DNA of 64,000 nucleotides from a virus (IMGVR_UViG_3300028886_000075), one strand, 5' to 3'; shown: positions 2,282 through 63,001, numbered from the stretch's first letter. A program made the numbers and translations. The notes: a model not told the origin generated them from the sequence alone.

Positions 2282-2282
2282 T

Positions 2283-3195: not shown

Positions 3196-3217
3196 AGAAT
3201 TTATAATTTGTAAACAA

Positions 3218-4233: not shown

Positions 4234-4245
4234 ATATATTAAACT

Positions 4246-4917: not shown

Positions 4918-4920
4918 ATA

Positions 4921-4975
4921 TTAAACTATGAAAAACTTATAATTTATAAACAAATGAAGAACCTAAAAGACATCA
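4921..4975. repeat. duplicated 5-prime module (vestigial start 'ttaaactatgaaaaa' plus 37 nt matching 3201-3237 with 1 mismatch)
   Basis: Direct comparison: 3201-3237 'ttataatttgtaaacaaatgaagaacctaaaagacat' against 4938-4974 with one substitution. 4921-4935 matches the 4240-4254 start context. Confidence 0.7.
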
Positions 4976-5457
4976 TATTAGAAAAACTTTCACCATTTAA
5001 TGTTTGGATAATGGTAGGTCTTCCTGGTGCGGGTAAATCAACATATATTAAAGAAAAATTACCTAAATCAATTAATATAGTTAGTCAAGACTATATAAGA
5101 CAAGAATTGGGTATAATAAAAGATGATACTCATAAGGCAATAGGAACCACTGAACAGGAAAAAGAAGTTACAAAAATAAATGATGAAAGAGTTGAAAAAC
5201 TTATTAAAGATAGAAAAGATTTTGTAATTGATAATACAAATGTTAAAGTAGGACGTGTTGAAAATTATTATAATAGGTTAAAGAAAATTGGTGCTAATGT
5301 TAAAATTGTTGTTGTTGATACACCTATAGAAACTTGTATTAAACGTAGAAATGATTGTATACCTGAAAACGTTATAAAACAAATGAATATTGGCATACAA
5401 AATGTTAAACAACAATTCAAAGATAATAAAGATTTAGAAATTGTTCATAATACTTAA
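4954..5457 (+). CDS. P-loop nucleotide/polynucleotide kinase-like protein (T4 Pnk kinase-domain-like), CTS-like N-terminus
   Basis: Walker A GLPGAGKST. VIDNTNVK parallels T4 Pnk ISDTNLN. 167 aa, so there is no phosphatase domain. Shares its first 12 aa with the DUF285 paralogs. Confidence 0.55.
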   Translation: MKNLKDIILEKLSPFNVWIMVGLPGAGKSTYIKEKLPKSINIVSQDYIRQELGIIKDDTHKAIGTTEQEKEVTKINDERVEKLIKDRKDFVIDNTNVKVGRVENYYNRLKKIGANVKIVVVDTPIETCIKRRNDCIPENVIKQMNIGIQNVKQQFKDNKDLEIVHNT

Positions 5458-24156: not shown

Positions 24157-24303
24157 TTAAAAAATATTCATTATTAATAATAATATTTGAATATAAATTT
24201 TCAAATGATATTAAAAAATTTTATTTTTATTAAATTGTATAATATTCTATTTGCATAAATTATGGTTATAGAATATATTAATACAATTAATGCATATAAT
24301 AAA

Positions 24304-24311
24304 TATAAATA
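24304..24311 (+). promoter_or_regulatory. TATAAATA T4-type late-promoter-like motif upstream of the tail sheath gene
   Basis: Exact TATAAATA lies 15-22 nt upstream of the ATG at 24326. Confidence 0.35.
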
Positions 24312-24325
24312 AAAGATATACAAAT

Positions 24326-27300: not shown

Positions 27301-27385
27301 TGAACCAGGTATGGGTTGCGGTAAGATGGTACAAGAACTTCACCTATACAGAACAGGTCAAATGTCTTCAAATATTATAGATTAA
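24326..27385 (+). CDS. gp18: tail sheath protein (T4 gp18-like), enlarged with insertion domains
   Basis: Sheath-like N-terminus (AAGIYRVVFD...VVGYSEVGPFNVPVLVQNPQEFKAIFG). The C-terminus DESNNTPEIIDNEMAVITTRIEP parallels T4 gp18 CDTTNNTPSVIDRNEFVATFYIQP. The start is moved from the ORF-track ATG at 24290 to 24326, because the TATAAATA motif would otherwise fall inside the coding sequence. Confidence 0.8.
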   Translation: MAIPVHLQQFKAAGIYRVVFDHSTVLNMDTQMLRLVVGYSEVGPFNVPVLVQNPQEFKAIFGDISKKLEKRGIYFHRLALQMLQVSPVLCLNLKKFDGETVGAATINTEFNPKFTPIDEVKLNVEDIYDTTRFWTLDAERLNNLRSVEGTLLDQYINIATTNVKNTSATYFIRKASGSKVAGYNITVNDWYSDETMPDYMEPYKNNLISDFFAEIYVFKGKFEAKQILASDTLKDYFIVTNELDEDGNQVLKLRDKVINAFGEAVDTLDALYRDETSNALGHYIGSIIPYFKNKQGAYACLDVIFNTDLDVHNMMLTFNKDLLEEELAANIDLSGRMFIPTKSNPNKANSSLSIDKIYAGTATTTVLGNVNAPVIADVISFKSSIYDPETETAIQDLVVSRNRISGTLYVKEITENQIFLAQVGSEQEVVLTFYDETDTKAKTVAAAKTLGVIFDGNGEPIDETGTMWKAGDAFLNKIDPLAGPQQVITALSRLEHKSDDGTEYTDIDENMKPSLKESEVQTIAKYVNTNTVGADSVYGSSISFIDFCDDNWEYVEDAEIQTGVKQAALIGTAQHDSSLINVLQKGDCILAKDNTVDVNDNGENDDADGFEDNVYVQETGTKTDENGNFLFYYIILSAEPYFYEILDEETGAMVNQCLVRVDAALNQEIGTMTPQYLEGYTYKNDRPLGTGMYAKVKWQEFILSALTDYKGLRTGLLNKSEIDYRYVIDTFESFPVTSLKNALSYLCKEKQSAFCIANFPSVQNFIKCPYTSFTDSKGVFNVDYVVKGFNKKKAASMMFSLPSEIDGASFIAFYTPLKFTDGYIDTIVPSAGLVSNLFVGKYLGRQPYYIVAGPNYGSITAAGLVGPDYKYSQDELQIIEPFGVNCMVYRPNFGTFINANQTAKQTPVSALSKVNVRELVIYLQDEIEKVLQSYQWEFNNPRTRNAILDKANQICAVIMANGGIQAYQNIMDESNNTPEIIDNEMAVITTRIEPGMGCGKMVQELHLYRTGQMSSNIID

Positions 27386-28191: not shown

Positions 28192-29826
28192 ATGAAACCT
28201 AATTTCTTATCATTTATAGAATCTCGTAATAAATTTATTAATGAATCATTTGATAATTCAAAAATTGATAAAGTATTTGAATTAATCAATAAAGTACTTA
28301 AAAAATATATAGATGGTTTAGTACCTTTAGTAGGATATGTAAAAATTAAACAAGGCAGTGATGAATTATATGCTAAACAATATATGGTTGTACCTAAGTC
28401 ATCACCACAAAACAGTACTGTATTTTGTATTAATCTAAAACAATCAAAAAATTCAACTGATTTTTATTCTATTGATTTCTTTAAAGATACTAATGTATTA
28501 TTCAGTGAAAAATCAAAAGCAGTTTTATCAATTTATACTTTAGGTAATTCTATATCATATTATTTACCTATTATTTGGACTATTGTTAATTCTAAAGATT
28601 ATAACTTATCTGAAAAAGAAGCTTTAAATATTGCTAGAAGTAAATTTACTGGAGTTAAAGAATCAAAATTCCAAATTGGGTCATTAAGATATATAATTTA
28701 TGAAAATCTTTCTGACAAAATTATTGAGGAAACATTTAATATTTATACTAATGAATCTATTTATAATTCTGAACAAGCAATAAATGAAATGAGTATAAAG
28801 GATTATAAAAAGAAAAAAGTTGATGAATTAATTGATGCACGTAATCATAAAAATGATTCTCCAGAAGCAAAAGATAAATGGAAACAAATAGTTTCTGAAC
28901 TTAAAGAAATTGATACTGCTATTAAAGGTGGTGCAACTACAATTGAAGATTTAAAACTTTCAATTAAACACAACATTCAAATAGTAAATGAATTAGATAA
29001 AGAAACACAAGAAGCTGAAGATAAGTTTAATGCAGAACGTGAAGATCCAGATTTAGTGTTTAAGAAAATGGATAAATACACAAAAATGGTTATAAAAGGT
29101 ATTAATCCTTCAGTAATTATTTGTGGTGCTCCTGGTGTTGGTAAAACATATCGTATTAAACAACAACTTAAAGCTAATGGATATAATGAAGGTCATAATC
29201 TTTTAACTATTAAAGGTAAATGTACACCACGTATTCTTTATCTTTCATTAATGCAATATAAAGAAAAAGGTAAGATTATATTAATTGATGATGCAGATAG
29301 CTTAGTTGGTCCTCATGCACCTGAAGATTGTATTAATATTTTGAAAGCTGCTTTGGATTCTACATCTGATGATGAAGGAAGAATTGTATCTTATGGAGTT
29401 TCAGGTCCACTTAAAGATGATGAAGGTACTCCAGTTGAAAAAAGATTCTTTTATAATGGTAGTATTATTGTTATAACAAATTATCAAGCATCTGCACTTG
29501 ATTCTGCTCTTAAAGGAAGATCATTTATTCAGGATATTAATTTCTCAAAAGACGAACTTCTTGAAATTATCAAAAAACTTATGCCTGCAATTGATCCTGA
29601 ACATCTTTCAGCAAAATCAAAAATTAAAGCATATGATTATTTAACAGAATTATCTAATACAAATCAAGATATGGAAATATCTATTCGTACTTTCGGCATA
29701 TGTGCAAAGATTTTTGAAACTGCTGCAGGTGATCCTGATTTTACTGATGATGATGCAAAATCAATGATTAAAGAACAAATGAAACTACAAGCTTCAAAAC
29801 GACAAGGTCGAGCTATTAAATATTAA
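28192..29826 (+). CDS. P-loop AAA-type ATPase with a long (about 300 aa) N-terminal extension
   Basis: Walker A VIICGAPGVGKTYRI and Walker B KIILIDDADSL in the C-terminal half. Confidence 0.55.
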   Translation: MKPNFLSFIESRNKFINESFDNSKIDKVFELINKVLKKYIDGLVPLVGYVKIKQGSDELYAKQYMVVPKSSPQNSTVFCINLKQSKNSTDFYSIDFFKDTNVLFSEKSKAVLSIYTLGNSISYYLPIIWTIVNSKDYNLSEKEALNIARSKFTGVKESKFQIGSLRYIIYENLSDKIIEETFNIYTNESIYNSEQAINEMSIKDYKKKKVDELIDARNHKNDSPEAKDKWKQIVSELKEIDTAIKGGATTIEDLKLSIKHNIQIVNELDKETQEAEDKFNAEREDPDLVFKKMDKYTKMVIKGINPSVIICGAPGVGKTYRIKQQLKANGYNEGHNLLTIKGKCTPRILYLSLMQYKEKGKIILIDDADSLVGPHAPEDCINILKAALDSTSDDEGRIVSYGVSGPLKDDEGTPVEKRFFYNGSIIVITNYQASALDSALKGRSFIQDINFSKDELLEIIKKLMPAIDPEHLSAKSKIKAYDYLTELSNTNQDMEISIRTFGICAKIFETAAGDPDFTDDDAKSMIKEQMKLQASKRQGRAIKY

Positions 29827-37730: not shown

Positions 37731-38894
37731 ATGAAAAGTCTTAGTCAAAAAAAGTCTGAAAATAAAAATTTTAAAGTTCAATCAAACAGTATTAATTTTA
37801 TAGATGCTGAAGATTTAAAGAAGTATCTTAAAGTTGCAAATAATTTTATCGGAGAAGATACAAAGGAACTTATTGATTGGTTGATTGTTAATAATAAAAC
37901 ATATATCAGCGATCTTTCAACTGATGACGATGAAAATGCATTAGCAGGATTTTATAAAGCAGGTGAACCTTCAAAAGGTGATTTAAAAGCGCTTTATAAA
38001 TTACTCAAAGATATTATTAAAAGTAATCGTATAATGGAAATTCCTGTTTTTCAAACTAAAGAACAGTTTGAGAATATTATTAATAAGAAAGTCCCAGCTG
38101 ATACAATTATACTAGATCTTAATTCTGAAAGCGGTCGTGCTGCAGTTGCAAAGAAATACGAACCATTAGTACATAAAATTTGTCATCAATGGGTAGGTAA
38201 GATCAATCTTCCTTATGATGATCTTCTTGGATTTGCATATGAGGGTCTTACATATGCAATGAATAACTATGGTAAAAAGAATAAGAAATCTACTGCAACT
38301 GATGAAGCAGTATTATCATATACATTTGGACAGTTTGCTGCATATTGTATTCTTAATCAAATTAAGGGTAATGGAGTTTATGCATCACATCTTGTTAGAA
38401 TTTCACCATCTCAACAAAAGAAAGAACGTCAAGAAAAGGGACATAATACAAAGAACTTCTCTTTATCTGGTGATAAAGTAGTTGGACATAATGATGAAGG
38501 TTCTAAAACATTATTTGACTTTATTGGTTCTGCTGAAAATTCATCTAATGATTTAGATAAGCAAGATCTTGAAAAATTACTTTCTGAAGCATATAAGATT
38601 TTGGAAAAGAACTTTAGTGATAAGACTATGGAAATTTGGTATAGTTTCTATGGAGTAAATGGTCATAAACAACTTTCTAATAAAGAACTTGCCGCTAAAT
38701 ATAATGTAGCTGGTTCAAATATTAGTTATTATTGTTATAAAGTAAATGCATTTATTCTTAAGAACAAAGAAATTCTTGATAAATTTAAAGAAATTAAAGA
38801 ACTTATGAATGAATGTCTTAATGATATTGACCGTGATAGTGATATGCGTGGTACAATGGTAACTAATACTGAAAATATAGATAATGAAGAATAA
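37731..38894 (+). CDS. sigma-70-family RNA polymerase sigma factor (phage-encoded)
   Basis: Region-2-like AAVAKKYEPLVHKICHQWVGKINLPYDDLLGFAYEGLTYAMNNYG and a region-4-like C-terminal HTH (NKELAAKYNVAGSNISYYCYKVNAFILKNK). Confidence 0.6.
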   Translation: MKSLSQKKSENKNFKVQSNSINFIDAEDLKKYLKVANNFIGEDTKELIDWLIVNNKTYISDLSTDDDENALAGFYKAGEPSKGDLKALYKLLKDIIKSNRIMEIPVFQTKEQFENIINKKVPADTIILDLNSESGRAAVAKKYEPLVHKICHQWVGKINLPYDDLLGFAYEGLTYAMNNYGKKNKKSTATDEAVLSYTFGQFAAYCILNQIKGNGVYASHLVRISPSQQKKERQEKGHNTKNFSLSGDKVVGHNDEGSKTLFDFIGSAENSSNDLDKQDLEKLLSEAYKILEKNFSDKTMEIWYSFYGVNGHKQLSNKELAAKYNVAGSNISYYCYKVNAFILKNKEILDKFKEIKELMNECLNDIDRDSDMRGTMVTNTENIDNEE

Positions 38895-39084
38895 TAATAC
38901 TAATTATTCAGAATGGCATGATGTAATATGTAAGAAAGACTTAACTATTGAACGTAAAGAAGGAAATATTACATTTAAAGCTAATAATGAATATAAAGCA
39001 TCAAAAATAAATACTAATTGGTGGCTTATAGACCAAATTGGTGTAAAAAATAATGATTTTAAAAAGTATTTTAAAGATATATAA
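38884..39084 (+). CDS. hypothetical small protein
   Basis: 66-aa ORF that overlaps the upstream stop. Confidence 0.4.
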   Translation: MKNNNTNYSEWHDVICKKDLTIERKEGNITFKANNEYKASKINTNWWLIDQIGVKNNDFKKYFKDI

Positions 39085-39102: not shown

Positions 39103-39333
39103 ATGAAAAATATCGGAGATAAAATTAACGAAGGACTAAATGTTTCAAAATCTTTTGTCTTAAATATGAAAGAACTTGATTACGATAAATTAATTGATTT
39201 TATTAAAGATATGCAATCTAAAAACGAAGACTTTATTGAATTACAAGTTGATTCATCTCGTAAATGGATTGGATATTCATTTTCAAAAGGAAAAACTGAT
39301 AATATTAGATACAATAAAACTGAATTAAATTAA
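39103..39333 (+). CDS. hypothetical protein, CTS-like N-terminus (MKNIGDKINEG)
   Basis: ORF with a weaker copy of the conserved N-terminal motif. Confidence 0.55.
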   Translation: MKNIGDKINEGLNVSKSFVLNMKELDYDKLIDFIKDMQSKNEDFIELQVDSSRKWIGYSFSKGKTDNIRYNKTELN

Positions 39334-39334
39334 T

Positions 39335-39529
39335 ATGAAACAAATAAAAGAATTTATTAATGAATCAAACGAATGGAATCCATCATTAGATTCTCATAAA
39401 GTTGCATATAATAACTTTGTTAAATGGTATGACAAATGTTTAAAACATTTAAATAAAGAAGAAATATTAGATTTACTTAATGGAGCAATTAAAGAAATTG
39501 AAGATGATTCATTAGATATCATAAAATAA
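39335..39529 (+). CDS. hypothetical protein, CTS-like N-terminus (MKQIKEFINES)
   Basis: Conserved N-terminal motif. Confidence 0.6.
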   Translation: MKQIKEFINESNEWNPSLDSHKVAYNNFVKWYDKCLKHLNKEEILDLLNGAIKEIEDDSLDIIK

Positions 39530-39547
39530 ATATATTGAAACTAATTA

Positions 39548-40069
39548 ATGAAATCAATAACTCAATATATATATGAAGCTGTAGAAAATTATAGATTGAA
39601 TTCTGTTGAAGTTACATATAATGTTCAACCAGAAGAATTAATATTACAAGCACCTGAAACATTCCAAGAGTCAGATATCCAACAATACATAGACGATATG
39701 TGGCTCAATCAACTTCCATCTTCTCAAGACTATTCTGAAAAATTCTTTGGAAAAAATAATGATAATATATCTGATGCATATTTTGAATATGATTCATTTG
39801 AACATCTTTCAGTAGAACCTAAAGATTATATTGAATGGAATTCAAAATATGATGTTAAGAAAAGTGGAGATGACATTACATTAGAATACTTTAAAATAAC
39901 AAATCTTAAATATCATATTAATTTTGATAGATTTGATATGGTTGATGTTGATGATGATAATGTAGAAGAAAAACTTAAAGATATATTTAGAACCACAGAA
40001 TCTAATAAAGAAAATGAATATCCTATAGAAATTCAATTTGATGAAGATTCACTTGAATATAGAAAATAA
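39548..40069 (+). CDS. hypothetical acidic protein, CTS-like N-terminus (MKSITQYIYEA)
   Basis: Conserved N-terminal motif. Confidence 0.6.
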   Translation: MKSITQYIYEAVENYRLNSVEVTYNVQPEELILQAPETFQESDIQQYIDDMWLNQLPSSQDYSEKFFGKNNDNISDAYFEYDSFEHLSVEPKDYIEWNSKYDVKKSGDDITLEYFKITNLKYHINFDRFDMVDVDDDNVEEKLKDIFRTTESNKENEYPIEIQFDEDSLEYRK

Positions 40070-40129
40070 ATAAAACAAAATAAAGATATTATATAGAGGC
40101 ATAATACCAAATACATCTATGATTATCTT

Positions 40130-40339
40130 TTGATTACAAAACCTCGATCTGACTGTAATAAACATATTATTAAACGTGAACATTACTGTAAAAAAGACGG
40201 TGAATGGAAACCTAAGAAAAAGTTTAATAGTGAAGAAGAAGCCAATACATGGATAACAAAATATAAAATGTACAAATATACTGCATATATATGTAAAGTC
40301 TGTGGAAAATGGCATATAGGTATTAAAAAGAAAACATAA
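40130..40339 (+). CDS. small zinc-ribbon-like protein
   Basis: CNKH...HYCKK...CKVCGKWH, 69 aa. Confidence 0.45.
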   Translation: MITKPRSDCNKHIIKREHYCKKDGEWKPKKKFNSEEEANTWITKYKMYKYTAYICKVCGKWHIGIKKKT

Positions 40340-40359
40340 AAACATTAAAAAATCAATAT

Positions 40360-40677
40360 ATGAAAGATTTAATTAGTATAATAACAGAATCAAGAAAAGA
40401 AATATGTCCTGAAGTTCAAAATGAATTCGAAAATGATTATGCATATCAATCTTATACAACAACAAAATCAAAATTTGATTATGGATTTTTAACATTTGAT
40501 GCTAATCAAGAATTTTATTCTGTTGTTGGAGTTAATGAAAACAGTGAATTCATTGATTCTTTATGTAATGATTTTAATTTAGATGCAGAAGAATTATTAG
40601 ATTTAAAAGTTGGTGAATCAATAAGTGATAAAAGCCATGGAGATAATTATAACTATTCAATTTTAAGAATTTGGTAA
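40360..40677 (+). CDS. hypothetical protein, CTS-like N-terminus (MKDLISIITES)
   Basis: Conserved N-terminal motif. Confidence 0.6.
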   Translation: MKDLISIITESRKEICPEVQNEFENDYAYQSYTTTKSKFDYGFLTFDANQEFYSVVGVNENSEFIDSLCNDFNLDAEELLDLKVGESISDKSHGDNYNYSILRIW

Positions 40678-40701
40678 AAATATAAAATATAATCACATAT
40701 T

Positions 40702-41196
40702 ATGAAAAATTTAACTGAAAAACTTAATATACAAAATATTAATGAATCAGTCGCAAAAGATATTAAGATTCCACGTAAAGGAAGCACTGTATATCTTTTA
40801 AAAGATGGTGATTCTAAAGCAATACCTGTAAAAGTCAATAATGTCACAAAGGTTAAGAACTCTTGGTATGGACGTTCAGGTGGATATGATGTAATTATTG
40901 AATTAGAAGATAATGAATATAAATTTGATGGCTGGAAAACATCACATTATGCAGACCCAAAATTAGATGAACCTATTCAAGTAGATACAAAATCAGTACA
41001 TGGAATTGGCACTTTTTACGTTGGTACATCTAAAGAAGTAATTTCAGAATTCATAAAGAATGGTGCGACAAAGAAACTTAAAATGTTACTTAAAGAAATA
41101 GAAGATGCAGAAAATCAACTTGCAGAATTAAATCGTCAAAAGAATGAACTTCAACAAAAGATTGACACTGAAATTACAGAATCTTTAAATAAATAA
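40702..41196 (+). CDS. hypothetical protein, CTS-like N-terminus, C-terminal coiled coil
   Basis: MKNLTEKLNIQNINES. C-terminus LKEIEDAENQLAELNRQKNELQQKI. Confidence 0.6.
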   Translation: MKNLTEKLNIQNINESVAKDIKIPRKGSTVYLLKDGDSKAIPVKVNNVTKVKNSWYGRSGGYDVIIELEDNEYKFDGWKTSHYADPKLDEPIQVDTKSVHGIGTFYVGTSKEVISEFIKNGATKKLKMLLKEIEDAENQLAELNRQKNELQQKIDTEITESLNK

Positions 41197-41205
41197 TTTA
41201 TAATT

Positions 41206-41487
41206 ATGAAAGACATTAAAGAAAAACTATTAAGCCAGATTAATGAAGACAGATTTGCATATTCATGGCAAAATGCTTTCATAAATGCTATCATATCATT
41301 AAATGATGTTGATGGTGAAATTCCTTGTCGTGAAATAGTCAATAAATGGTTTAATGATGAACAAGCTCTTCATGAATTATATACATTCTTATATCGTATA
41401 GATTGTAAACCTGAAAAGAAGGATGTAAATTCTATAGTTGAAGCAATTATAAATAAATCATCAAAATTGAAAACTTACAAGATATAA
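41206..41487 (+). CDS. hypothetical protein, CTS-like N-terminus (MKDIKEKLLSQINED)
   Basis: Conserved N-terminal motif. Confidence 0.6.
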   Translation: MKDIKEKLLSQINEDRFAYSWQNAFINAIISLNDVDGEIPCREIVNKWFNDEQALHELYTFLYRIDCKPEKKDVNSIVEAIINKSSKLKTYKI

Positions 41488-41508
41488 AAATATATGAGTT
41501 AAACAAAT

Positions 41509-41772
41509 ATGAAAAATTTAAAAGATAAATTAGTTTTGGAAAATGAAGAATCTGCAATATTTACATTAACTGCTAAAGATTTAGATAAGATACTTTTTTC
41601 ATTATCATTTACTGCTGGGTGGGCTAGCGAAGTTAATTCATATGAAATGAAAGAATATAAGAAACTTTGGGATGAATTAAATAAAGGAGCAAAGAAATCA
41701 TTTGATGCAGATATGTATGTAGATGACTGGGATGATTATGAACTGGCTCATACAGGAAGCTTTAAACATTAA
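41509..41772 (+). CDS. hypothetical protein, CTS-like N-terminus (MKNLKDKLVLENEES)
   Basis: Conserved N-terminal motif. Confidence 0.6.
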   Translation: MKNLKDKLVLENEESAIFTLTAKDLDKILFSLSFTAGWASEVNSYEMKEYKKLWDELNKGAKKSFDADMYVDDWDDYELAHTGSFKH

Positions 41773-41803
41773 TTATATAATAAATTATGAGAATACTTAA
41801 ATA

Positions 41804-42154
41804 ATGAAAGACATTAAAGAATATATTAATGAATCTAAAAATTTCAAATTAGAATCTGATGAACGTCAAGCTTTAGCAGACTTAATTGGTATGTTATGCG
41901 GTAATATTGGAAATGATGAAGATATAAACAAATTAAAATCTGTAATAGATCAATTAAGTAAAGAAGAAATAAAACAATTAGATAATCTTCATGATTGTTT
42001 AGATGATGAAGAAACATATAAGAAAATAAATCGTAATATTATTATTGATGATATTCCATTGATTAAAAAAATATATAAATTAATGGATGATAATAATTTA
42101 TTAGGAGAACAATGGGATCTTATTGATGCTTTAGAGAAAATAAATGAATATTAA
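41804..42154 (+). CDS. hypothetical protein, CTS-like N-terminus (MKDIKEYINES)
   Basis: Conserved N-terminal motif. Confidence 0.6.
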   Translation: MKDIKEYINESKNFKLESDERQALADLIGMLCGNIGNDEDINKLKSVIDQLSKEEIKQLDNLHDCLDDEETYKKINRNIIIDDIPLIKKIYKLMDDNNLLGEQWDLIDALEKINEY

Positions 42155-42156
42155 AT

Positions 42157-42558
42157 ATGAAACAAATAACATCATATTTGTTAGAAGGTCTTCGTATCAA
42201 TAAAGATATTAAAGTTAATTATGAAAGAGATGATATATACAACATTATAATTGCTGCTTATCTTTCTATATATCGTCTTAAATGTTGGACTGAAACATCT
42301 ACATTTAAAAAGAAAATTTTATATATTAAATATGAAGATATATTAAATATTCTTAATGATAATTTTGAATATACATTTACAAAAGACGATATAAAAAGAA
42401 CATCAGGATATATATGGAAAATTGTTAGAAAATATTTAATACCTATTCAGAATATGATTAATGGATATAATGTAATTATTAGAATTGAAGATGAAAAAAT
42501 AACAATTAATTATAAAGAAATTAATGAAAAGTATAAAGACATTTTAAATAAAAAATAA
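42157..42558 (+). CDS. hypothetical protein, CTS-like N-terminus (MKQITSYLLEG)
   Basis: Conserved N-terminal motif. Confidence 0.6.
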   Translation: MKQITSYLLEGLRINKDIKVNYERDDIYNIIIAAYLSIYRLKCWTETSTFKKKILYIKYEDILNILNDNFEYTFTKDDIKRTSGYIWKIVRKYLIPIQNMINGYNVIIRIEDEKITINYKEINEKYKDILNKK

Positions 42559-43496
42559 TGCAATCTTTGAATAACTATATAATAGAAACAAATATAGAAA
42601 ATATTTTTTTGGATAAATTATGTAATCATATATCATTATCATTATATATTAAATATGGTTACGGAATTTATCCATATGTTTCTTTATATGAATCATTTGG
42701 TAATTTTAAGAATACTCATAAAGTATTATATCATATTATTGAAGTATTAAAAAATGAATTCAAGTCTCAAGAAATAGATTGTACTAATGATAATGTATTT
42801 TTCAAGAAAATAAAAATAGATATAGTTAATGAAGATTATATAAGTGCAAGTTATTTAAATATTAATAATGATAAAATAGATATTGAAATATTATGTTTAG
42901 ATAAAGAAATGTTTATTGATAATATTGAAGAATATACTGAATTGATATTACATGAACTTTTACATGGTTATGAAGATTTTAACCGTAAAACAACTAATAA
43001 ACCAGATATATTTCAATTATGGAATGTTGATTATGAAAAATCTTATTTAAATATAAATAATTTTGATAAGATTAAAAGATATATAAGTAGATGTAAATAT
43101 TTTTTAAATTCACAAGAACGTAATGCGTATTTTTCATCTTTAGAATTATCTATTAAGAAAATAATTAAAGATTATCATATTACTGCAGATAATTTAGATT
43201 ATGAAAAATTCAAACATGGAATTAAACGCGAAACATTATGGGAAATTTATTTTGATTTAGGAACATTTATTCTAGGATTAAATAATATAAATAATGAATA
43301 TAAAAAGGAAATAGAAAAACAATATAATTCATTATATAATACAAACAAATCATTTAACGAAATCAAAAAAGAATTAAATAATAAATGGAAAAAATTTGAT
43401 CATAAATTCAATCAGTTAATTCCTAAAATATTATGTAAAAATATACAAATAAAAGAATTTAAAAATTCTTCTTTTAGTTTGAAAAAATTATTATAA
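42558..43496 (+). CDS. hypothetical protein with an HExxH motif (LHELLHGYEDF), CTS-like N-terminus (MQSLNNYIIET)
   Basis: An HELLH pentapeptide is followed by GY. A paralogous HELNHGY is present in the 63029 ORF. Confidence 0.55.
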   Translation: MQSLNNYIIETNIENIFLDKLCNHISLSLYIKYGYGIYPYVSLYESFGNFKNTHKVLYHIIEVLKNEFKSQEIDCTNDNVFFKKIKIDIVNEDYISASYLNINNDKIDIEILCLDKEMFIDNIEEYTELILHELLHGYEDFNRKTTNKPDIFQLWNVDYEKSYLNINNFDKIKRYISRCKYFLNSQERNAYFSSLELSIKKIIKDYHITADNLDYEKFKHGIKRETLWEIYFDLGTFILGLNNINNEYKKEIEKQYNSLYNTNKSFNEIKKELNNKWKKFDHKFNQLIPKILCKNIQIKEFKNSSFSLKKLL

Positions 43497-43508
43497 AAAC
43501 TTTACATT

Positions 43509-44396
43509 ATGAAGTCATTGAACAACTATATATTTGAATCTAAAGAAGTTTCTACAAAATCTAATAAAGAACGTCGTAAGGAATTGGAAAAATGGTTGAA
43601 ACATAAAAAGTATGACGATTATGTTGATACTTTAAATAAGATGCTTGAAGATCCTAAATCAGCTGCATTATTGGAAGATGGTTTTGGGGGAGAACTTGGA
43701 GATACAAAATTAACATTTTCAGTTAAAGAAATTCCAGTATCTCAGTTAATGCCTACACAAAAAGATATAGATTTAGATAAGTCATTAAAACATGCATTAA
43801 CAGATAAAGAATCTTTAATTAAGACTTTTGCAAATCCAATTGAAATCAATAAGCCTATTGTTACTTTTAGAGAGAATTATGTTATAGACGGTCATCATAC
43901 ATGGCTACAAGCTATAGCATTAAATCCAAAAGGAAAAATATTATCATTTAATTATGACGGTGATATTTCTCCAATTCAGATGCTTAAGGCTGTACAAGGA
44001 ACTATAGCAGCAGTTAAAGCTGATAAGAATAATAATAATGGTAAACTTCCATCAAATAATGTAAAAGGTCCTAATTTCTTTGATGAATCATTTGATGAAA
44101 AGAAAATTAGGAAATATATAGAAGATAATCTTAATGAAGACTTAATAGATCAATATATAGAAAAAATAGAAGAATGCTATGATTACGATTCTACTGTTGA
44201 TTATATAGTAGAACGTCTATTAGATATTAAGTCAAATAATTATCCATTTGATACAGCACCAGATAGAAAGAATATGCCACAAGTATTTAAAGGTGGCACA
44301 GATAAAGATGATAAAAGTTCTGCATTACCTGATAAAGAAGGTTCTGCGATGAATAAACTTAAAAATGATACCTTTTATAAAAAAGCTACCATTTAA
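43509..44396 (+). CDS. ParB/sulfiredoxin-fold nuclease-like domain protein, CTS-like N-terminus (MKSLNNYIFES)
   Basis: VSQLMPTQKDID ... PIVTFRENYVIDGHHTWLQAIALN resembles the ParB N-terminal domain (L-PTQ ... DGHHR). Confidence 0.45.
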   Translation: MKSLNNYIFESKEVSTKSNKERRKELEKWLKHKKYDDYVDTLNKMLEDPKSAALLEDGFGGELGDTKLTFSVKEIPVSQLMPTQKDIDLDKSLKHALTDKESLIKTFANPIEINKPIVTFRENYVIDGHHTWLQAIALNPKGKILSFNYDGDISPIQMLKAVQGTIAAVKADKNNNNGKLPSNNVKGPNFFDESFDEKKIRKYIEDNLNEDLIDQYIEKIEECYDYDSTVDYIVERLLDIKSNNYPFDTAPDRKNMPQVFKGGTDKDDKSSALPDKEGSAMNKLKNDTFYKKATI

Positions 44397-44436
44397 ATAA
44401 GTATAAATATGATAAATTTATAAAATCAGTTACAAA

Positions 44437-44892
44437 ATGAAAGATATAGTTAATTATATTACAGAAGCATCTTCATCAAAATTTGATTATTGGAAAGATG
44501 TAATTAAATTTCCTGGATATGAACTTAAAGTATCAAAGAAATACTTAGACAAGAAAATAAATACAAGATATTATCAGGAAGAATTCTTATATCAATATTT
44601 TGGTTGGATTAACCAATGGATTGATAAGAATGTTAAAAAGATTATTAGTATAGTAACTAAAGAAAATAAAGAGTTTCCAAAAGAAATTTCAATATCTTTA
44701 CCAAGTGAATTACATGGTGTTTTACAATTTGACTGGGATTGTGGTTGGGCAGATAATATACCAACAGGATCTCTTCGTGATGTTGAATTAAAAGTAGATA
44801 ATGTTTCACCAGGATCAATGAGTCATAGTTCATTCTATCAGGCACAAGAAGATTTACAAAATTTTAAATTAAAAGATATAATTAAATTTTAG
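44437..44892 (+). CDS. hypothetical protein, CTS-like N-terminus (MKDIVNYITEA)
   Basis: Conserved N-terminal motif. Ends with TAG, a rare stop in this window. Confidence 0.6.
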   Translation: MKDIVNYITEASSSKFDYWKDVIKFPGYELKVSKKYLDKKINTRYYQEEFLYQYFGWINQWIDKNVKKIISIVTKENKEFPKEISISLPSELHGVLQFDWDCGWADNIPTGSLRDVELKVDNVSPGSMSHSSFYQAQEDLQNFKLKDIIKF

Positions 44893-44943
44893 TTTAATAG
44901 ACAATAAATAATATTTTTAATAAATAGATATTAATATTAATTA

Positions 44944-45498
44944 ATGAAAGACATTAAAACATTTATTTCAGAAGCAAAGAAACAAACACCTAAAAAAGAA
45001 TACCCTATGAAAAAGAAAGAAACTTATGGAGATTTAGGTGAAAAATGGTTTGATAAGTGTAAAGACTTTGCTACGGCAGGAAGTACACAATGGACTAAAT
45101 ACGGTATCAATGATTTTAAAGGATTCTTAGAAGATATGGATAAAGAATTCAAACCAGGTGGAGAAGGCCGTTGGAAAAAGGATTGTGAAGTTCGTTGGGA
45201 AATGTGTCAAGCACTTAAAGATAAAGATTTAGATAAATTTGTAAAAATTGCTAAAGAAAACTATGTTGAAAAATTTACTTTTGGTGCACATCCTAATGCT
45301 GATTACACTTATGGATCATATTTTTTAGATACTTATATGCTTCTTAGAACTTACGAATATATTCTTGATGGCAATATGGTAATTCGTAATGGTATTTTAA
45401 ATGCTATCTGGAGAATTGATGATACTATGGATAATTGGTATGATAAATTTATTGATACAGTTCATAAATTAGAAAAACAAGTTCCTGGACATAAATAA
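44944..45498 (+). CDS. hypothetical protein, CTS-like N-terminus (MKDIKTFISEA)
   Basis: Conserved N-terminal motif. Confidence 0.6.
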   Translation: MKDIKTFISEAKKQTPKKEYPMKKKETYGDLGEKWFDKCKDFATAGSTQWTKYGINDFKGFLEDMDKEFKPGGEGRWKKDCEVRWEMCQALKDKDLDKFVKIAKENYVEKFTFGAHPNADYTYGSYFLDTYMLLRTYEYILDGNMVIRNGILNAIWRIDDTMDNWYDKFIDTVHKLEKQVPGHK

Positions 45499-45528
45499 AT
45501 AATATATCAAACATATAAACATATAAAA

Positions 45529-45840
45529 ATGAAACATATTAAGAATTATATATTAGAAAAAAATGAAGATAAAACTTTAAGTGGATTCTGTATCATAGAT
45601 ATGACAGATGAAACATTGATATCTAGGTGGGGAACTGGTGATTTAAGAAAATGTATAACAGAATTACAAAAGCTTAAAAAGGAAGAAGAAGATAAAGAAT
45701 ATTGGATAGTTGCTGAATTTAATGAAATATATGATTTAGAAGATACTGGTAATTATAGAGTATTATCTTCAAGAGAATATAATGAAAGAGAAGATGATTT
45801 TGGTATTAATCCAAAATTTAAAGAGTATATACTTAAATAA
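45529..45840 (+). CDS. hypothetical protein, CTS-like N-terminus (MKHIKNYILEK)
   Basis: Conserved N-terminal motif. Confidence 0.6.
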   Translation: MKHIKNYILEKNEDKTLSGFCIIDMTDETLISRWGTGDLRKCITELQKLKKEEEDKEYWIVAEFNEIYDLEDTGNYRVLSSREYNEREDDFGINPKFKEYILK

Positions 45841-45857
45841 ACACATATATATGATAT

Positions 45858-47234
45858 ATGAACGTTAAAATTGTTCAAGATAATAGTAGAACTGAACGTA
45901 ATGTTTCAGATGATGTAGTAGAAATACTTTATCAAGAAACTAAAAACTATGAAACACACGATAATTCTAAATTAATTGGTAGTATTGAAATCAATCGTGG
46001 GTATTCTGATGCAGTAGAATTTTTAAATAGAAATTATTCAAATTTAACAATATCTACTAAATTTGAATCATATATAAGATTTGAAGATCCTATTGTTGAA
46101 CAATTAATATTAGATAGATTTTCAACATTAGATACTCCAGTTGGTGATGGCATAGGTATAACACAATCTGATTTAAATAGTATTAATCAAGGTTGGTTTT
46201 GGGATACTTTTCAAAATACTGAAATAACTAAATTTAATGAATTTAAATTATGTATAAATTATAAAAATTTATCAAGTGCAAGTTTTAAAAATTGTACAAA
46301 ATTAGAAGAAATTAATTTAACTAATATTGAAATCATATCTGTAGCTTCATGTTTACAAAATACCAAAATAAAAGAAGCATATTTACCAAATTTAACAAAA
46401 ATAACTGCGGGTAATATTTTTTATAATTGTACAGAATTGGAATCGTTTAATGCTCCTTTATTAGAACAAATAACTGGTGCTTCACATTTTTATAATTGTA
46501 CTTCATTAAAAACAATAAACATACCTATATTTAATGGTAGAATAAGTGAGTCTATGTTTAGAAATTGTTCTTCATTAGAAACATTAAATATAGGAAATAT
46601 TACTGAAATAGTTGGGAGTTATGCTTTTCTTGGGTGTAAAGAATTGTCTTCAATAGATTTATCTGAATGTACAAAAATACAAAGCGATTCTGTATTTAAT
46701 GGTTGTTCTTCTTTAACTAATTTAGGAGATACATCAAATATTACTTATTTTAATGGAACTTGGACATTTTTTAATTGTTCAAATTTAACTGGTACTTTAG
46801 ATTTATCTAATATTAGTAATGATTTTAATTTAACTGGTACATTTAATAATTGTTCAAATTTAACAAAAATAAAATTAGGTGTTACAAATACTATAGGTAG
46901 TAGATGGCATGGTTTTGACAATGATAGAAAAGCATTTTACGGATGTACTAATTTAGTTACAATAGATATTAAACAATTAAACCATACAGCTCTTGAGTAT
47001 AAAAGTGCATTTGGTAATAATCCTGCATTAAGAAATTTTATAATACGTAATACTGAAAATATACCTGCATTTGATAATGAACAAACAACAGTAAATATAA
47101 ATTGTTTTGGTGGATCAAATGTTAAAGTATATGTTGATGATAATTTATTAGAAACATATAAAACTACAGAAGGCTGGGAAGATATGATAGATTATTTATA
47201 TCCTATTAGTGAATATGTTCCTATAGAAGATTAA
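45858..47234 (+). CDS. BspA-type leucine-rich repeat (LRR_5-like) protein
   Basis: Repeats of the form F..C..L..I.L.N.T.I....F..C..L. Confidence 0.65.
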   Translation: MNVKIVQDNSRTERNVSDDVVEILYQETKNYETHDNSKLIGSIEINRGYSDAVEFLNRNYSNLTISTKFESYIRFEDPIVEQLILDRFSTLDTPVGDGIGITQSDLNSINQGWFWDTFQNTEITKFNEFKLCINYKNLSSASFKNCTKLEEINLTNIEIISVASCLQNTKIKEAYLPNLTKITAGNIFYNCTELESFNAPLLEQITGASHFYNCTSLKTINIPIFNGRISESMFRNCSSLETLNIGNITEIVGSYAFLGCKELSSIDLSECTKIQSDSVFNGCSSLTNLGDTSNITYFNGTWTFFNCSNLTGTLDLSNISNDFNLTGTFNNCSNLTKIKLGVTNTIGSRWHGFDNDRKAFYGCTNLVTIDIKQLNHTALEYKSAFGNNPALRNFIIRNTENIPAFDNEQTTVNINCFGGSNVKVYVDDNLLETYKTTEGWEDMIDYLYPISEYVPIED

Positions 47235-48843: not shown

Positions 48844-51147
48844 ATGAATCATATTAATATACAAAATGAATCAACAAATATCACTGAATATATAGATTCA
48901 AATATTTTAGAAAAAATTTATAATTTATTTTCTGGTGAGGTTACACCAACAGAATTAGATCATATTATATTAGATAATACATCTATATTAAAAGGAAATA
49001 TAACAGTACCATCAGTATATAAATTTATATATGATTGGTTATTAGAAAGATATCCAAATACATTAAGAATTAATTATAATGATTTGTATATTTATATTAA
49101 AGATCCATATATAGAAGCAAAATTATTAGAAAACAATTTTGGTGATAGCACTAATTCACATGTAACATATTCTAAAGTATTTGCTGCAACAACATTACCG
49201 GTTTTTGGTATTACTGGTTCATATAGTGAATATGAAGAAAACATTACTGAATTTAAAGAATTGGCAGAATTCACTAATATTAAAAAACTCTCAGATAGAA
49301 TATTTAGACAATGTAGAAATTTAGAAACAGTTGATTTAATAAATGTTACAGAATTAGGAAATGCTGCATTTTATAGATCAGGTATAAAACATTGTTTAAA
49401 TTCGGGTAATGTTGAAATTATTGGGGAGCAGTGTATTGAAGATTGTACTAATTTAGAAACATTTGATTTTTCTTCAGTAAAAAAAATTGGAACACATAGT
49501 ATATATAATACAGGATTAACTGCAATACATTTTAATGGTTCTGAAGATATAATTTTAATGAACCAGGCAATCAATAATAATAAAAGTTTAACAGTTATAG
49601 ATGGATTACAAAATGTTAAGCAATTTACTGCCGGTAATATATTTTCGAATAACACTGCGTTGTTAGAATTAAGATTAGATAATTTGGAATTATGTGACGG
49701 AAATAATTTCGTTAACAATTGCACTTCATTACATACATTTTATGCACCTAAATTAGCGACAAAAATAGAATACGGGACATTTGGTGGTTGTAAAGCATTA
49801 AAAAATTTAACTATTGACTGGGAAAATATAACTACTATTAAAGGAAATGCATTTAATTCCTGTACATCATTAACATCAGATAAAGTTGATATATCTCATG
49901 TTACAGAATTTACAGGAAATGGACATTTTACTGAGTGTAGTAGTTTAACTTCATTAACGGTAAATCAAAATATAATTAATATTCCTGAATATTTTTGTTA
50001 CAGATGTACTAATTTATCAACAATTAATTTAACAAACTGTACTACTATTGGTAATTATGCTTTTATTGGTACATCATTAGTTAATGTTGACATAAGTGCA
50101 TGCTCATCTTTAGGAGCTGGTGTATTTGCTGAAGTGAATACATTGACTAGTGTTAAGTTATGTCCAAATTTGAAAACATTAAATACTGGAGTATTTAAGA
50201 GCTGTATTAATCTTTCTAACATCAACACTAATTTTGCAGTAATTACATCAATTGGTAGTTCTGCATTTGAAGGTTGTAAATCATTGACAACATTTGATGT
50301 TTCATCAGTTATGTCATTAGGTGATTGGTCATTTGCTTACTGTGACAATCTAACAACGTTAAATCTTTCTTCAGTAATAACAAACATACCTAATCAATGT
50401 TTTAGAACCAACCCTAAACTAACATCTGTTGGTGATTTGTCAAGTGTTAAAATAATAGAAAAACAGGCATTTTTAGATTGTCCTTTGTTAACTGGTCCAT
50501 TAGATTTAAGTAATTGTGAAACTATAAATGGAAGTGCATTCAAAGGATGTTCAGCATTGACAGAAGTAATATTGACTACAAAATGTACTTTAATAAAAGG
50601 TGAAGCATTTAGAGGATGTACGAATCTAGAATCAGTTGGGGATTTGTCTAACGTTACAATGTTAGGAACCCATTTTGCTAATGATATGCATACATTTAGT
50701 GGGTGTTCATCATTAGTTTCTGTCAACTTATCGAATAAATGTACATTATTATGTGGTAATACATTTAGAAACTGTACGTCATTAACATCTGTTGGTGATA
50801 TATCAGGTCTTATTGATATATATGTAGCGACATTCTACAATTGCTCATCATTGACTCAGAATTTTGATCTATCTAATATAACTGGAATAATTGGTGAAGC
50901 TGCATTCCAAGGATGTTCATCATTGACATCTATACTTGTTGGTGCTAATGTACAGAAAATTGATCAAAATGCATTTAAGGATTGCCCATTATTGACCGTC
51001 AAGTTCTTAGGAATTACACCACCATCAGATTTTGCAATCAATGCGTTCAATTCACAGATTTATAATATATTAGTTCCTAATGATTCATTGAATTCATATA
51101 AAGTAAAAATACCTGAAAGCTTACATTCAAAAATAGAAACATACTAA
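48844..51147 (+). CDS. large BspA-type leucine-rich repeat (LRR_5-like) protein (767 aa)
   Basis: About 20 repeats of CT(S/N)L..V.L....IG..AF.GC..L type. Confidence 0.7.
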   Translation: MNHINIQNESTNITEYIDSNILEKIYNLFSGEVTPTELDHIILDNTSILKGNITVPSVYKFIYDWLLERYPNTLRINYNDLYIYIKDPYIEAKLLENNFGDSTNSHVTYSKVFAATTLPVFGITGSYSEYEENITEFKELAEFTNIKKLSDRIFRQCRNLETVDLINVTELGNAAFYRSGIKHCLNSGNVEIIGEQCIEDCTNLETFDFSSVKKIGTHSIYNTGLTAIHFNGSEDIILMNQAINNNKSLTVIDGLQNVKQFTAGNIFSNNTALLELRLDNLELCDGNNFVNNCTSLHTFYAPKLATKIEYGTFGGCKALKNLTIDWENITTIKGNAFNSCTSLTSDKVDISHVTEFTGNGHFTECSSLTSLTVNQNIINIPEYFCYRCTNLSTINLTNCTTIGNYAFIGTSLVNVDISACSSLGAGVFAEVNTLTSVKLCPNLKTLNTGVFKSCINLSNINTNFAVITSIGSSAFEGCKSLTTFDVSSVMSLGDWSFAYCDNLTTLNLSSVITNIPNQCFRTNPKLTSVGDLSSVKIIEKQAFLDCPLLTGPLDLSNCETINGSAFKGCSALTEVILTTKCTLIKGEAFRGCTNLESVGDLSNVTMLGTHFANDMHTFSGCSSLVSVNLSNKCTLLCGNTFRNCTSLTSVGDISGLIDIYVATFYNCSSLTQNFDLSNITGIIGEAAFQGCSSLTSILVGANVQKIDQNAFKDCPLLTVKFLGITPPSDFAINAFNSQIYNILVPNDSLNSYKVKIPESLHSKIETY

Positions 51148-57540: not shown

Positions 57541-58758
57541 GTGAGTAAACAGTTTAATTTAAGTAAGTCTTCGTTAAACGAAATAGAATTATTTTTTGAT
57601 AAGATAGATTCTTTTATTGATGATTATGAATTTTATGATACATTTAAAGAAATTGTATATAAAGATTCTAAAATGATAAAAGATTGTTCGGAAAAATGTA
57701 TTGTAAGTTTTTATATAGAGTCTTGTAAAGATATATTAGAAAAATCTAATTATGAAATATATGAATCTTTTTATAATGATTTAAAATATAAAACAAGATT
57801 AAAACTTGTTGATAAGTTTGTACCAAAAGTTTTATATGATAATAATATTGATATATATTTTAATGAAGTAAAAAGAGAATATATTATGCATCCTATGGGT
57901 GAATCTGAAGATATGGCGTTTGTACCAGAAAATAAAGAAGTTTTTATTAAGAATAATTTAAAACTTGTAATTGATTGTGCAAAACGTTATCAAAATTTAG
58001 GTATTCCATTGGAAGATTTAATACAAGCAGGCAATGAAGGATTATTAATAGCTTTTAATAAATTTGATGGTGAAAGATCAAATTTAAGAAATAATATCAT
58101 AAACGATATAAAGAAATCAGATTTATATTTTTTTAATAAATATGATGCAATAGATATTATTAAAAAAAATTTTCAATATACAAAAACTTTAGAATCAACA
58201 TTAAGTAAATTACCCGAAGAAGGATTTGAATGTAAAGATGATTTTATTGATTGGGCACAAGAAAACATTAAAAAAGCATCGTTTTCATCTATAGGTTTTG
58301 CGTGGATTAAGGCATTTATATTATCTGAAATTAATAAACTTGGAAAGATAATAAGAGTTCCTAAGTCTGCTCAAAAGAAAGGTGTATCTACAGTTAATGT
58401 TTTACGTTTAGATTCAATTAATCCACACACTGATGATTCATATCACGATAATCAAATTTCTTCAGTCGCAAATGAAGAATTTGCTATTGAAGATGAAACA
58501 ATGGAAAATATGGAACGTCAGAATTTATTCAAAGAAATAATTGAACGAATGCTTTGTAATGTTTCTGCATTAGATAGAAGAATAATAAAAAAGAAATTTG
58601 GAATTGATAAACCATTTCCAATGTCAATAAATGAAATAGCAGAAAATGAAGGTTTATCTGCAAATAAAGTTAAGTATAGTATAAGTAATACATTAAAGAT
58701 AATTGAAAAAAATTGTACACCAAATGAACGTAAAACAATAATATCACTTTTGAAGTAA
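57541..58758 (+). CDS. sigma-70-family RNA polymerase sigma factor (second phage-encoded copy; GTG start)
   Basis: Region 2: NKEVFIKNNLKLVIDCAKRYQNLGIPLEDLIQAGNEGLLIAFNKFDGER. Region-4-like HTH: MSINEIAENEGLSANKVKYSISNTLKII. Confidence 0.65.
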   Translation: MSKQFNLSKSSLNEIELFFDKIDSFIDDYEFYDTFKEIVYKDSKMIKDCSEKCIVSFYIESCKDILEKSNYEIYESFYNDLKYKTRLKLVDKFVPKVLYDNNIDIYFNEVKREYIMHPMGESEDMAFVPENKEVFIKNNLKLVIDCAKRYQNLGIPLEDLIQAGNEGLLIAFNKFDGERSNLRNNIINDIKKSDLYFFNKYDAIDIIKKNFQYTKTLESTLSKLPEEGFECKDDFIDWAQENIKKASFSSIGFAWIKAFILSEINKLGKIIRVPKSAQKKGVSTVNVLRLDSINPHTDDSYHDNQISSVANEEFAIEDETMENMERQNLFKEIIERMLCNVSALDRRIIKKKFGIDKPFPMSINEIAENEGLSANKVKYSISNTLKIIEKNCTPNERKTIISLLK

Positions 58759-62167: not shown

Positions 62168-63001
62168 ATGAAAAATTTAGGTGATTTAATAAAAGAATCA
62201 TTTATTAATACAGATATTAATGAATATGATAATTATATAATTGAAGGATTAAATATTGATCCTAATGAAAAAATTGTATCATTAACAGATAATCATAATA
62301 AAGGATTAGATTTATCATTAATTAATAATCCTGTATATAGTACATATAAAGGATATAATGTTATTTCTATTTTTAAAAGAACAAAATTATATGATATTAA
62401 TGATGTTCAAAGAGATGGAAATCCATTTATTTATGCATTAAAAAATAAAAATGGATGGAAATTTAAAATAACTGATAAAGAAATACATAAATATATTAAG
62501 AGATTTTTAGAAATATGTAAAAAAATTAAATCTTCATATGATACAATTATAATAACACCATCATCAAGTGATATTAATGAAAAATTTATGAAAGTAATAT
62601 CTAATCAAGTTAATTGTAAAGATATTATTAATGAATATTTTGTAAAATTATCTAAAGAAGAAATAATTGATGATGATTTAATTGATAAAGATCAAATTCA
62701 AAATGATTATGGAAATGATTATACTAAAGTTTTAGCAGAAATTAATAGAAGTTTTAGACGAATGAAAGGTGAATCATTTGAAGCTAAATATATTAAAAAG
62801 GAATATTTAAAATATATTAAATATATATCAACAAATTCAAATGATAATATAAGAGATAAAATAGATAATAAGGATATTTTATTATTAGATGATACTATAT
62901 CATCTGGAGAAACATTAAGTCAATGTATAGAAGGTATAATATCAAATTTTAATCCAAAATCAATTACAATTATAACATTATTATCACAGCTTAATGAATA
63001 A
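62168..63001 (+). CDS. type I phosphoribosyltransferase-fold protein, CTS-like N-terminus (MKNLGDLIKES)
   Basis: The C-terminal PRPP-binding motif DILLLDDTISSGETL matches the PRTase / PRPP-synthetase signature. Confidence 0.55.
   Translation: MKNLGDLIKESFINTDINEYDNYIIEGLNIDPNEKIVSLTDNHNKGLDLSLINNPVYSTYKGYNVISIFKRTKLYDINDVQRDGNPFIYALKNKNGWKFKITDKEIHKYIKRFLEICKKIKSSYDTIIITPSSSDINEKFMKVISNQVNCKDIINEYFVKLSKEEIIDDDLIDKDQIQNDYGNDYTKVLAEINRSFRRMKGESFEAKYIKKEYLKYIKYISTNSNDNIRDKIDNKDILLLDDTISSGETLSQCIEGIISNFNPKSITIITLLSQLNE

Follow-up and report, generated by a model that had tools for sequence, protein, structure and literature searches.

The 64,000-nucleotide stretch of viral DNA analyzed here (IMGVR_UViG_3300028886_000075), hereafter the window, comes from a giant, uncultivated phage of the rumen type, and between positions 39103 and 45840 it carries a block of genes whose products begin with variants of the same ten residues. 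We propose that this common N-terminus is probably a capsid targeting sequence (CTS) of the type used by phage T4, and that 39103-45840 is one hypervariable island of genes for tagged capsid cargo. The proposal is based on a motif that occurs far above chance, is carried by unrelated proteins and is retained in relatives, on the hypervariability of the island and on the presence in the same window of a homologous prohead protease, a scaffold-like region and a capsid protein.

A portable ten-residue N-terminus

In its strict form (M-[KQ]-x-[IL]-x-x-[YFIL]-[IL]-x-E at residues 1-10) the motif stands at the start of 18 of the 81 genes called in the window, compared with a chance expectation of 0.006 when calculated from amino-acid composition or about 0.04 when calculated from its internal frequency (5e-4 per position), and it is found in none of the 32 non-gene open reading frames (ORFs). 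A six-frame scan returned 20 matches, all on the plus strand, and 18 of these are ORF starts at which the Met is the first after a stop codon, with no in-frame Met upstream. Chance or compositional bias was rejected as the origin of the motif on these grounds, fewer than 0.05 occurrences being expected where 18 were observed and the six-frame matches lying exclusively on the coding strand. In all, at least 23 genes in the 64 kb are tagged. The codons that specify the motif differ from gene to gene, with five in use at position 4 (TTA, ATT, CTA, ATA and TTG) and seven at position 7 (TTT, TTC, ATT, ATC, TAT, ATA and TTA), and they vary synonymously or conservatively everywhere except at ATG and GAA, the second codon being mostly AAA. 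Selection therefore acts at the protein level, and conservation of the DNA by itself was rejected as an explanation.

The consensus of 156 distinct tagged proteins from the window and its relatives is M-K-[DNS]-[IL]-[KN]-[NED]-[YFI]-I-x-E-[SKAG], and conservation extends over positions 2-8 and is not confined to the cleavage site. The tagged proteins are small, with a median length of 129 residues. In the AlphaFold2 model of the 295-residue product of gene 43509 (genes are named here by their first nucleotide), the tag is predicted to be a short helix (residues 4-11) followed by a linker and then by the folded domain. The tag is carried by unrelated proteins, including members of generic domain families (DUF285, phosphoribosyltransferase, AAA and ParB/Srx), and it is absent from the starts of the RNA ligase, the helicase, the type II topoisomerase, the two sigma factors, the macro and MazG proteins, the sheath and the capsid protein.

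Within the island, an earlier preliminary description of this DNA counted fifteen tagged ORFs but named fourteen, and fourteen is correct: ten have the strict tag, one a near-canonical tag, two a tag with a longer spacer and one a degenerate tag. It had also stated that these proteins share no similarity elsewhere, and an all-versus-all BLASTP comparison with the first 16 residues removed indeed gave 0 matches within the cluster. Paralogy was rejected as the origin of the common start, since the tag-trimmed proteins are unrelated. The genes are tightly packed, as described, with gaps of -1 to 51 nt except for a 290-nt gap around 40130.

The T4 genes, read directly, provide the comparison. IPII and IPIII start with MKTYQEFIAE/A and gp24 starts with MAKINELLRE/S (the slash here and below marks a known or predicted cleavage point), and a relaxed 10-residue regular expression, used as a positive control, picked out exactly gp24, IPII and IPIII among 113 T4 ORFs and 18 of the 83 window ORFs used for this count. 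These three T4 proteins are known substrates of the gp21 protease. The window tag has in common with the T4 CTS and the gp24 propeptide a length of 10 residues and the pattern M-K/A-x-hydrophobic-x-x-aromatic/hydrophobic-I/L-x-E, followed by S, A or G. In T4, the CTS MKTYQEFIAE is removed by gp21 and suffices to pack foreign proteins into heads (PMC8442874, PMC3012670, PMC5694885).

Turnover of tagged genes between conserved anchors

A comparison of gene content with three related loci (L004, L007 and L008) bears out the hypervariability that the preliminary description had suspected. The same anchors are kept in all three loci, namely the sigma-factor-like gene to the left of the island (62-64% identity), gene 39548 (75-80%) and gene 43509 (80-82%), and most of the tagged genes between them are swapped, ten of the fourteen having no homologue in these loci, where other tagged genes sit instead. 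Across the island, L007 and L008 share 95-97% identity, yet two entire tagged-gene cassettes distinguish them, and the junction of one of these lies within the 30 nt that code for the tag. The anchors stay in place while complete tagged-gene cassettes are gained, lost or allowed to decay, and this is how the island evolves. A 172-residue tagged gene is whole in L008 (8764-9282) and split by a frameshift in L007 (8746-9265), a case of gene decay inside the island. Given this turnover of cassettes between anchors, the island likely encodes a fast-shifting set of effectors that act early and are directed against host defences or towards taking over the host.

The CTS and hypervariable internal-protein loci are textbook T-even biology. 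The internal-protein loci of T-even phages are hypervariable (Repoila et al. 1994, through PMC3012670), and they are like the island in having conserved anchors and diverse, replaceable ORFs that share only the tag. We also liken to them the gain and loss of cassettes between near-identical relatives. The island differs from the T-even loci in its far greater size (6.7 kb holding 14 tagged genes) and in that several islands are present per genome, with single tagged genes in other neighbourhoods.

More widely, a degenerate DNA pattern for the tag retrieved 38 IMG/VR loci on contigs of 20-435 kb, in which 125 of 557 genes have the strict tag (about 22%, a fraction biased upward because the loci were picked by the tag). 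The strict tag is present in 104 of 120 close homologues of 43509, the others having conservative variants, and tag-like N-termini are found in 31 of 134 distant members of the 43509 family versus 2.9 expected. The family of the HExxH protein encoded by 42558 keeps M[KI]xLN[ND]Y[IMV]IE[NST], and one HExxH homologue retains the tag among the untagged nucleotide-metabolism genes of another phage. Overall the tag persists at 30-45% identity, beyond the range in which the DNA can be aligned. The preliminary description had named loss of the tag from the homologous genes of related phages as the observation that would count against it; the orthologues retain the tag.

Prohead protease, proposed mechanism and alternative readings

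At 20490-22193 (plus strand) the window encodes a prohead protease of the T4 gp21/S77 family fused to a scaffold-like C-terminal region (Pfam Peptidase_S77, E 5e-10; PHROG 207, E 8e-37; with a match to PDB entry 5jbl). Residues His75, Ser130 and Asp151 align with the triad of T4 gp21 and with the 5jbl sequence and are invariant in the alignment, and the N-terminal LIYE/T and IVE/S of the protease align with LIE/T and MLE/S of T4. The C-terminal part is an acidic, scaffold-like region of 370 residues. The protein contains 19 [IL]xE sites (3.35 per 100 residues, versus 0.5-1.6 in tail and capsid proteins), and eight tandem 36-nt repeats at 21474-21761 encode PEVQNW[IV]xEEFA, each ending in an I/V-x-E site. 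The same protease-scaffold fusion, equally rich in [IL]xE sites, is annotated in Tenacibaculum phage PTm1. The gp23-type major capsid protein is encoded at 22301-24058 (plus strand; Pfam Gp23, E 3e-31), and its IHEIHE/S (residues 36-41) aligns with IAKIFE/N of T4, the Glu being invariant in PTm1, the uncultured phage LR756500 and T4 gp23. From the T4-like alignments of the protease, the [IL]xE-rich scaffold and the capsid site, the specificity of the protease is most likely that of T4, and we presume that this is the enzyme that removes the tags.

We therefore propose a route in which the tag would first fold into a short amphipathic helix with hydrophobic residues at positions 4, 7 and 8. Through this helix the protein would join the scaffolding core as the prohead assembles, the gp21-family protease would then cut the tag after the I/L-x-E at residue 10, and the mature cargo (median about 120 residues) would stay in the head with the DNA and enter the host at infection. 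The island would be one of several gene blocks for such cargo. What we infer in this scheme is that tagged proteins go to the prohead, are cleaved at Glu10, occur in virions, are injected into the host and act there as effectors. On a more speculative note, the tag (…N-Y/F-I-x-E) might correspond to one unit of the 12-residue scaffold repeat (…Q-N-W-I/V-x-E-E-F) and co-assemble with the scaffold. A position-specific scoring matrix derived from the tags gave the scaffold repeats no high score, which makes the resemblance only a visual lead, and Trp never occurs in the tags.

The likeness to T4 extends to the presence of gp21 and gp23 homologues in the window and to the portability of the tag between unrelated cargo, and there are also several differences. 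T4 has a handful of tagged genes, versus the at least 23 in 64 kb here and about 22% in related loci; its internal proteins are basic, whereas the cargo here is mostly acidic and includes enzyme-like domains; position 4 of its CTS is Y, where the window tags have I or L; and gp21 and gp22 are separate in T4, whereas here protease and scaffold-like region form one protein. In the phiKZ-like giants (SPN3US, phiKZ and 201phi2-1) a T4-related prohead protease processes many head-internal proteins, and their propeptides are thought to target the prohead (PMC5694885). Those propeptides are mostly 80-160 residues long, have no common short tag and are cut at A/S/G-x-E, in contrast to the uniform 10-mer of the window, which is presumably cut at I/L-x-E as in T4. 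The ParB/Srx, HExxH and phosphoribosyltransferase domains found among the cargo are of kinds that recur in polyvalent proteins, which are delivered with the DNA and include ParB/Srx, HExxH metallopeptidase-like and phosphoribosyltransferase domains (Iyer et al. 2017, PMC5512222). A polyvalent protein has many domains in one giant polypeptide, whereas each small effector here would have a tag of its own. The cargo domain types fit an effector role without proving one.

It should be noted that several observations weigh against capsid targeting as we propose it. About a quarter of the genes are tagged, giving far more cargo species than in T4. The mature cargo is mostly acidic (median isoelectric point 5.6, with 94 of 156 proteins below 6 and 31 of 156 above 8), so that the cargo, while small, does not share the T-even internal-protein trait of being highly basic and DNA-associated. 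The cleavage site itself is not invariant: 18 of 120 homologues in the HExxH family start with MKSINEYIIKN, with Lys for Glu at position 10, and a few homologues of 43509 end the tag in ...YIDNI, which means that cleavage at residue 10 is not universally preserved. The Lys10 variants of the HExxH protein may be packed uncleaved or may have gone from the cargo pool. The closest isolated phages have only 31-36% capsid-protein identity, and the neighbourhood of the capsid gene showed no tags in PTm1 (25 kb covered) or LR756500 (42 kb covered), these stretches being only small parts of the two genomes. No signal of late promoters was found: the T4-like late promoter TATAAATA is not enriched in the window (36 found versus 34 expected), and between 37000 and 47500 sigma-70-type promoters are below or at chance and intrinsic terminators number 0.

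The share of tagged genes and the acidity of the cargo would be easier to accommodate if the tag were a recognition helix for some other machinery, such as a phage or host chaperone, an AAA+ protease that reads it as an N-degron and so sets how long the effector lasts, a membrane or SPFH platform or an export system, in which case the proteins would be intracellular or exported and not in the capsid. Short, exposed amphipathic helices on linkers are used by many recognition systems, a tagged share of about 25% of genes is high for capsid cargo, and genes for an SPFH/Band-7 protein and an AAA ATPase lie nearby. We nevertheless consider this improbable, for the motif ends exactly in the I/L-x-E that gp21-type proteases cut, its length and hydrophobic pattern are the same as those of the T4 CTS and gp24 propeptide, it has no hydrophobic signal-peptide core, and nothing links it to another system. 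The fixed position of the I/L-x-E site, together with the several enzyme-like cargoes (ParB/Srx, HExxH, phosphoribosyltransferase and AAA), would also suit a mere pro-peptide that keeps enzymes inactive until the prohead protease or some other protease becomes active, with no targeting role and no need for injection. This is more improbable again. Ten residues set off by a flexible linker are unlikely to act as an inhibitor of so many unrelated folds, the conservation seen at positions 2-8 exceeds what a bare cleavage site requires, and the equivalent peptide of T4 is sufficient to target foreign proteins (PMC8442874).

The remaining alternative places the function in the nucleic acid, with the common start serving as an optimum for translation initiation in an AT-rich phage or as the boundary of a 30-nt recombination cassette and having no function as a peptide. 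It draws on the lack of visible Shine-Dalgarno sequences upstream, on the dominance of AAA as the second codon and on the cassette indel junctions of L007 and L008 at the tag-coding 30 nt. We judge it very improbable, in view of the codon variation at all motif positions other than ATG and GAA, the lack of the motif in highly expressed structural genes (capsid protein and sheath) and the persistence of the tag in homologues at 30-45% identity whose DNA cannot be aligned. A role in recombination, moreover, is compatible with a CTS function and is no replacement for it.

Capsid targeting therefore remains our preferred reading of the tag, and by analogy with T4 the system would be a strongly expanded form of the CTS and internal-protein system in a distant jumbo-phage lineage. 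To our knowledge, demonstration of the CTS mechanism is so far limited to T-even phages, and a search of the literature consulted, covering rumen, Lak-like and other non-T-even phages, found no report of a short T4-like CTS, nor of one at such a scale. A bolder version, which we regard as possible and only slightly short of an even call, is that in this rumen-type jumbo-phage lineage the T4 CTS has become an all-purpose address for delivery, with dozens of unrelated and rapidly exchanged effectors per genome, each bearing a 10-residue tag of its own, being loaded into the head and injected. If the tags act as in T4, the CTS mechanism would be conserved across very distant phages of the gp23/gp21 type (about 30% capsid-protein identity) and would extend to a quarter of all genes. 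The packed and injected proteins of uncultivated huge phages could then be predicted by a simple rule applied to sequence, which would list candidate early effectors and anti-defence proteins by the hundred, hardly any of them with a known homologue, and the capsid would be a high-capacity, re-programmable device for protein delivery. The very short natural tag could serve in engineering to load foreign proteins into large capsids, and from the turnover of cassettes the conserved 30 nt that code for it may double as a recombination joint. The system is in these respects of interest to research on phage assembly and on anti-defence.

Individual genes and the wider window

The right-hand anchor, 43509-44396, encodes a 295-residue protein with the tag MKSLNNYIFE/S that had been described as a ParB-like nuclease. 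The ParB/Srx alpha+beta fold stands but the nuclease does not, since the arginine that is regarded as an active-site hallmark of the ParB/Srx superfamily (PMC5512222) is absent, and the label is thus not justified. Nuclease or NTPase activity requires this arginine. In the broad 43509 family, 134 of 150 representatives have DGHHRW; the window protein and 119 of its 120 close homologues have DGHHTW, with Thr at residue 131. Fixation of Thr in this well-conserved lineage suggests that catalysis has been altered or lost. The family is large, with 711 cluster representatives, its D127, G128, H129 and W132 are invariant, and its members are often embedded in much longer proteins. Pfam ParBc_2 scores below threshold against the window protein (13.4 bits versus a cut-off of 23.6; E 0.083) and weakly matches 19 of 95 family members (best E 3.7e-4), and a tblastn search of isolated phages gave one weak match only, to Microcystis phage Mel-JY01. 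The 312-residue product of 42558-43496 (tag MQSLNNYIIE/T) does contain the HExxH motif attributed to it, which is invariant (HELLHGYEDYNR) and lies on a helix after a four-stranded sheet. A fold search with this protein found no match to a zincin, leaving the metallopeptidase fold unconfirmed, and the protein is a candidate metallopeptidase only. Searches of the island proteins against Pfam, PHROG and NCBIfam gave a single significant match, that of 43509 to PHROG 2859 (unknown function).

The island and the two genes just to its left are all on the plus strand. As the preliminary description had noted, the cluster lies just downstream of a sigma factor, the left anchor at 37731-38894, which is untagged, conserved and 387 residues long (PHROG 351, 'RNA polymerase sigma factor', E 6.6e-13). 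It is followed by an untagged 66-residue ORF at 38884-39084, and the ORF of L004 that is 67% identical to the latter (2691-2906) starts with MQDIIESIKK, which looks like a decayed or variant tag. The first tagged gene, 39103-39333 (76 residues), has no homologue in L004, L007 or L008, and its near-canonical tag MKNIGDKINE/G is one residue off the strict motif. The tag of 39335-39529 (64 residues), MKQIKEFINE/S, is the closest to MKTYQEFIAE of T4, and 39548-40069 (173 residues; MKSITQYIYE/A) keeps its tag in all three relatives. The interruption at 40130-40339 is untagged, as had been described, and is moreover a doubtful ORF of 69 residues, with a TTG start, CxxC-type cysteines and no call from the metagenome gene caller. 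It lies inside the 290-nt gap (40070-40359), which otherwise holds a hydrophobic ORF on the opposite strand (40049-40345) that is probably spurious.

Beyond this gap, 40360-40677 (105 residues; MKDLISIITE/S) has no family match. The longer spacers reported for 40702 and 41206 are present, their INE being at residues 13-15 and 12-14, respectively, as a result of a 4-5 residue insertion: 40702-41196 (164 residues) has the extended 15-residue tag MKNLTEKLNIQNINE/S and 41206-41487 (93 residues) the extended 14-residue tag MKDIKEKLLSQINE/D. The degenerate tag, MKNLKDKLVLENEE/S, which fails the strict motif, is that of 41509-41772 (87 residues). Canonical tags follow in 41804-42154 (116 residues; MKDIKEYINE/S) and 42157-42558 (133 residues; MKQITSYLLE/G), which lead to the HExxH and ParB/Srx-fold genes. 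To the right of these, 44437-44892 (151 residues; MKDIVNYITE/A) has a homologue of 71% identity that lies elsewhere within the island of L004, 44944-45498 (184 residues; MKDIKTFISE/A) has no homologue in the relatives, and 45529-45840 (103 residues; MKHIKNYILE/K) has an L004 homologue of 51% identity and shares its tag with a 101-residue ORF of a 435-kb IMG/VR contig. Two BspA-type leucine-rich-repeat proteins that adjoin the island (45858-47234 and 48844-51147) are untagged, and the size of the leucine-rich-repeat gene product differs among relatives, with 458 residues here and 857 in L004.

Outside the island, a first tagged cluster occupies 1541-5457 (plus strand), with eight starts at 1541, 2283, 2594, 2902, 3218, 3766, 4246 and 4954. 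It includes three DUF285 paralogues, and tagged DUF285 paralogues at 3218-4917 contain internal 72-nt repeats. Single tagged genes on the plus strand encode an AAA-type ATPase (28192-29826), which has the variant tag MKPNFLSFIE/SRNKFINE/S, and a phosphoribosyltransferase-domain protein (62168-63001; MKNLGDLIKE/S; Pfam Pribosyltran, 28.8 bits versus a cut-off of 26.3).

The window has a G+C content of about 25%, and a tRNA scan of it found no tRNA genes. No Shine-Dalgarno sequences are visible upstream of its genes. A myovirus structural module is present and includes a tail-sheath-like protein at 24290-27385. The major capsid protein is 31-36% identical to those of the closest deposited phages, which are the uncultured LR756500, Sphingomonas phage PAU and Tenacibaculum phages PTm1 and pT24, and about 30% identical to the capsid proteins of Lak megaphages. 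A DNA similarity search with the island found no match among isolated phages. Many metagenome assemblies hold gene copies that are identical or 80-90% identical, the exact window sequence is also on a metagenome contig of 289,687 bp, and copies of its genes are on the 245-kb scaffold SHIW14, whose name we take to be that of a sheep-rumen data set. In addition to the left anchor of the island, a second sigma-factor-like gene is present within the 64 kb at 57541-58758 (Pfam Sigma70_r2). The structural module is headed by the SPFH/Band-7 domain protein (8405-10498; 697 residues), which has an N-terminal hydrophobic segment and Ala/Glu/Lys-rich repeats. Finally, the RNA-ligase ORF at 123-1520 (Pfam RNA_ligase, residues 22-192) contains a perfect internal tag, MKNLNVYIKE/EKK, at residue 359 (nt 1197) with 107 codons after it, and this could be an in-frame fusion of a once-separate tagged gene, an internal start or an internal cleavage site.

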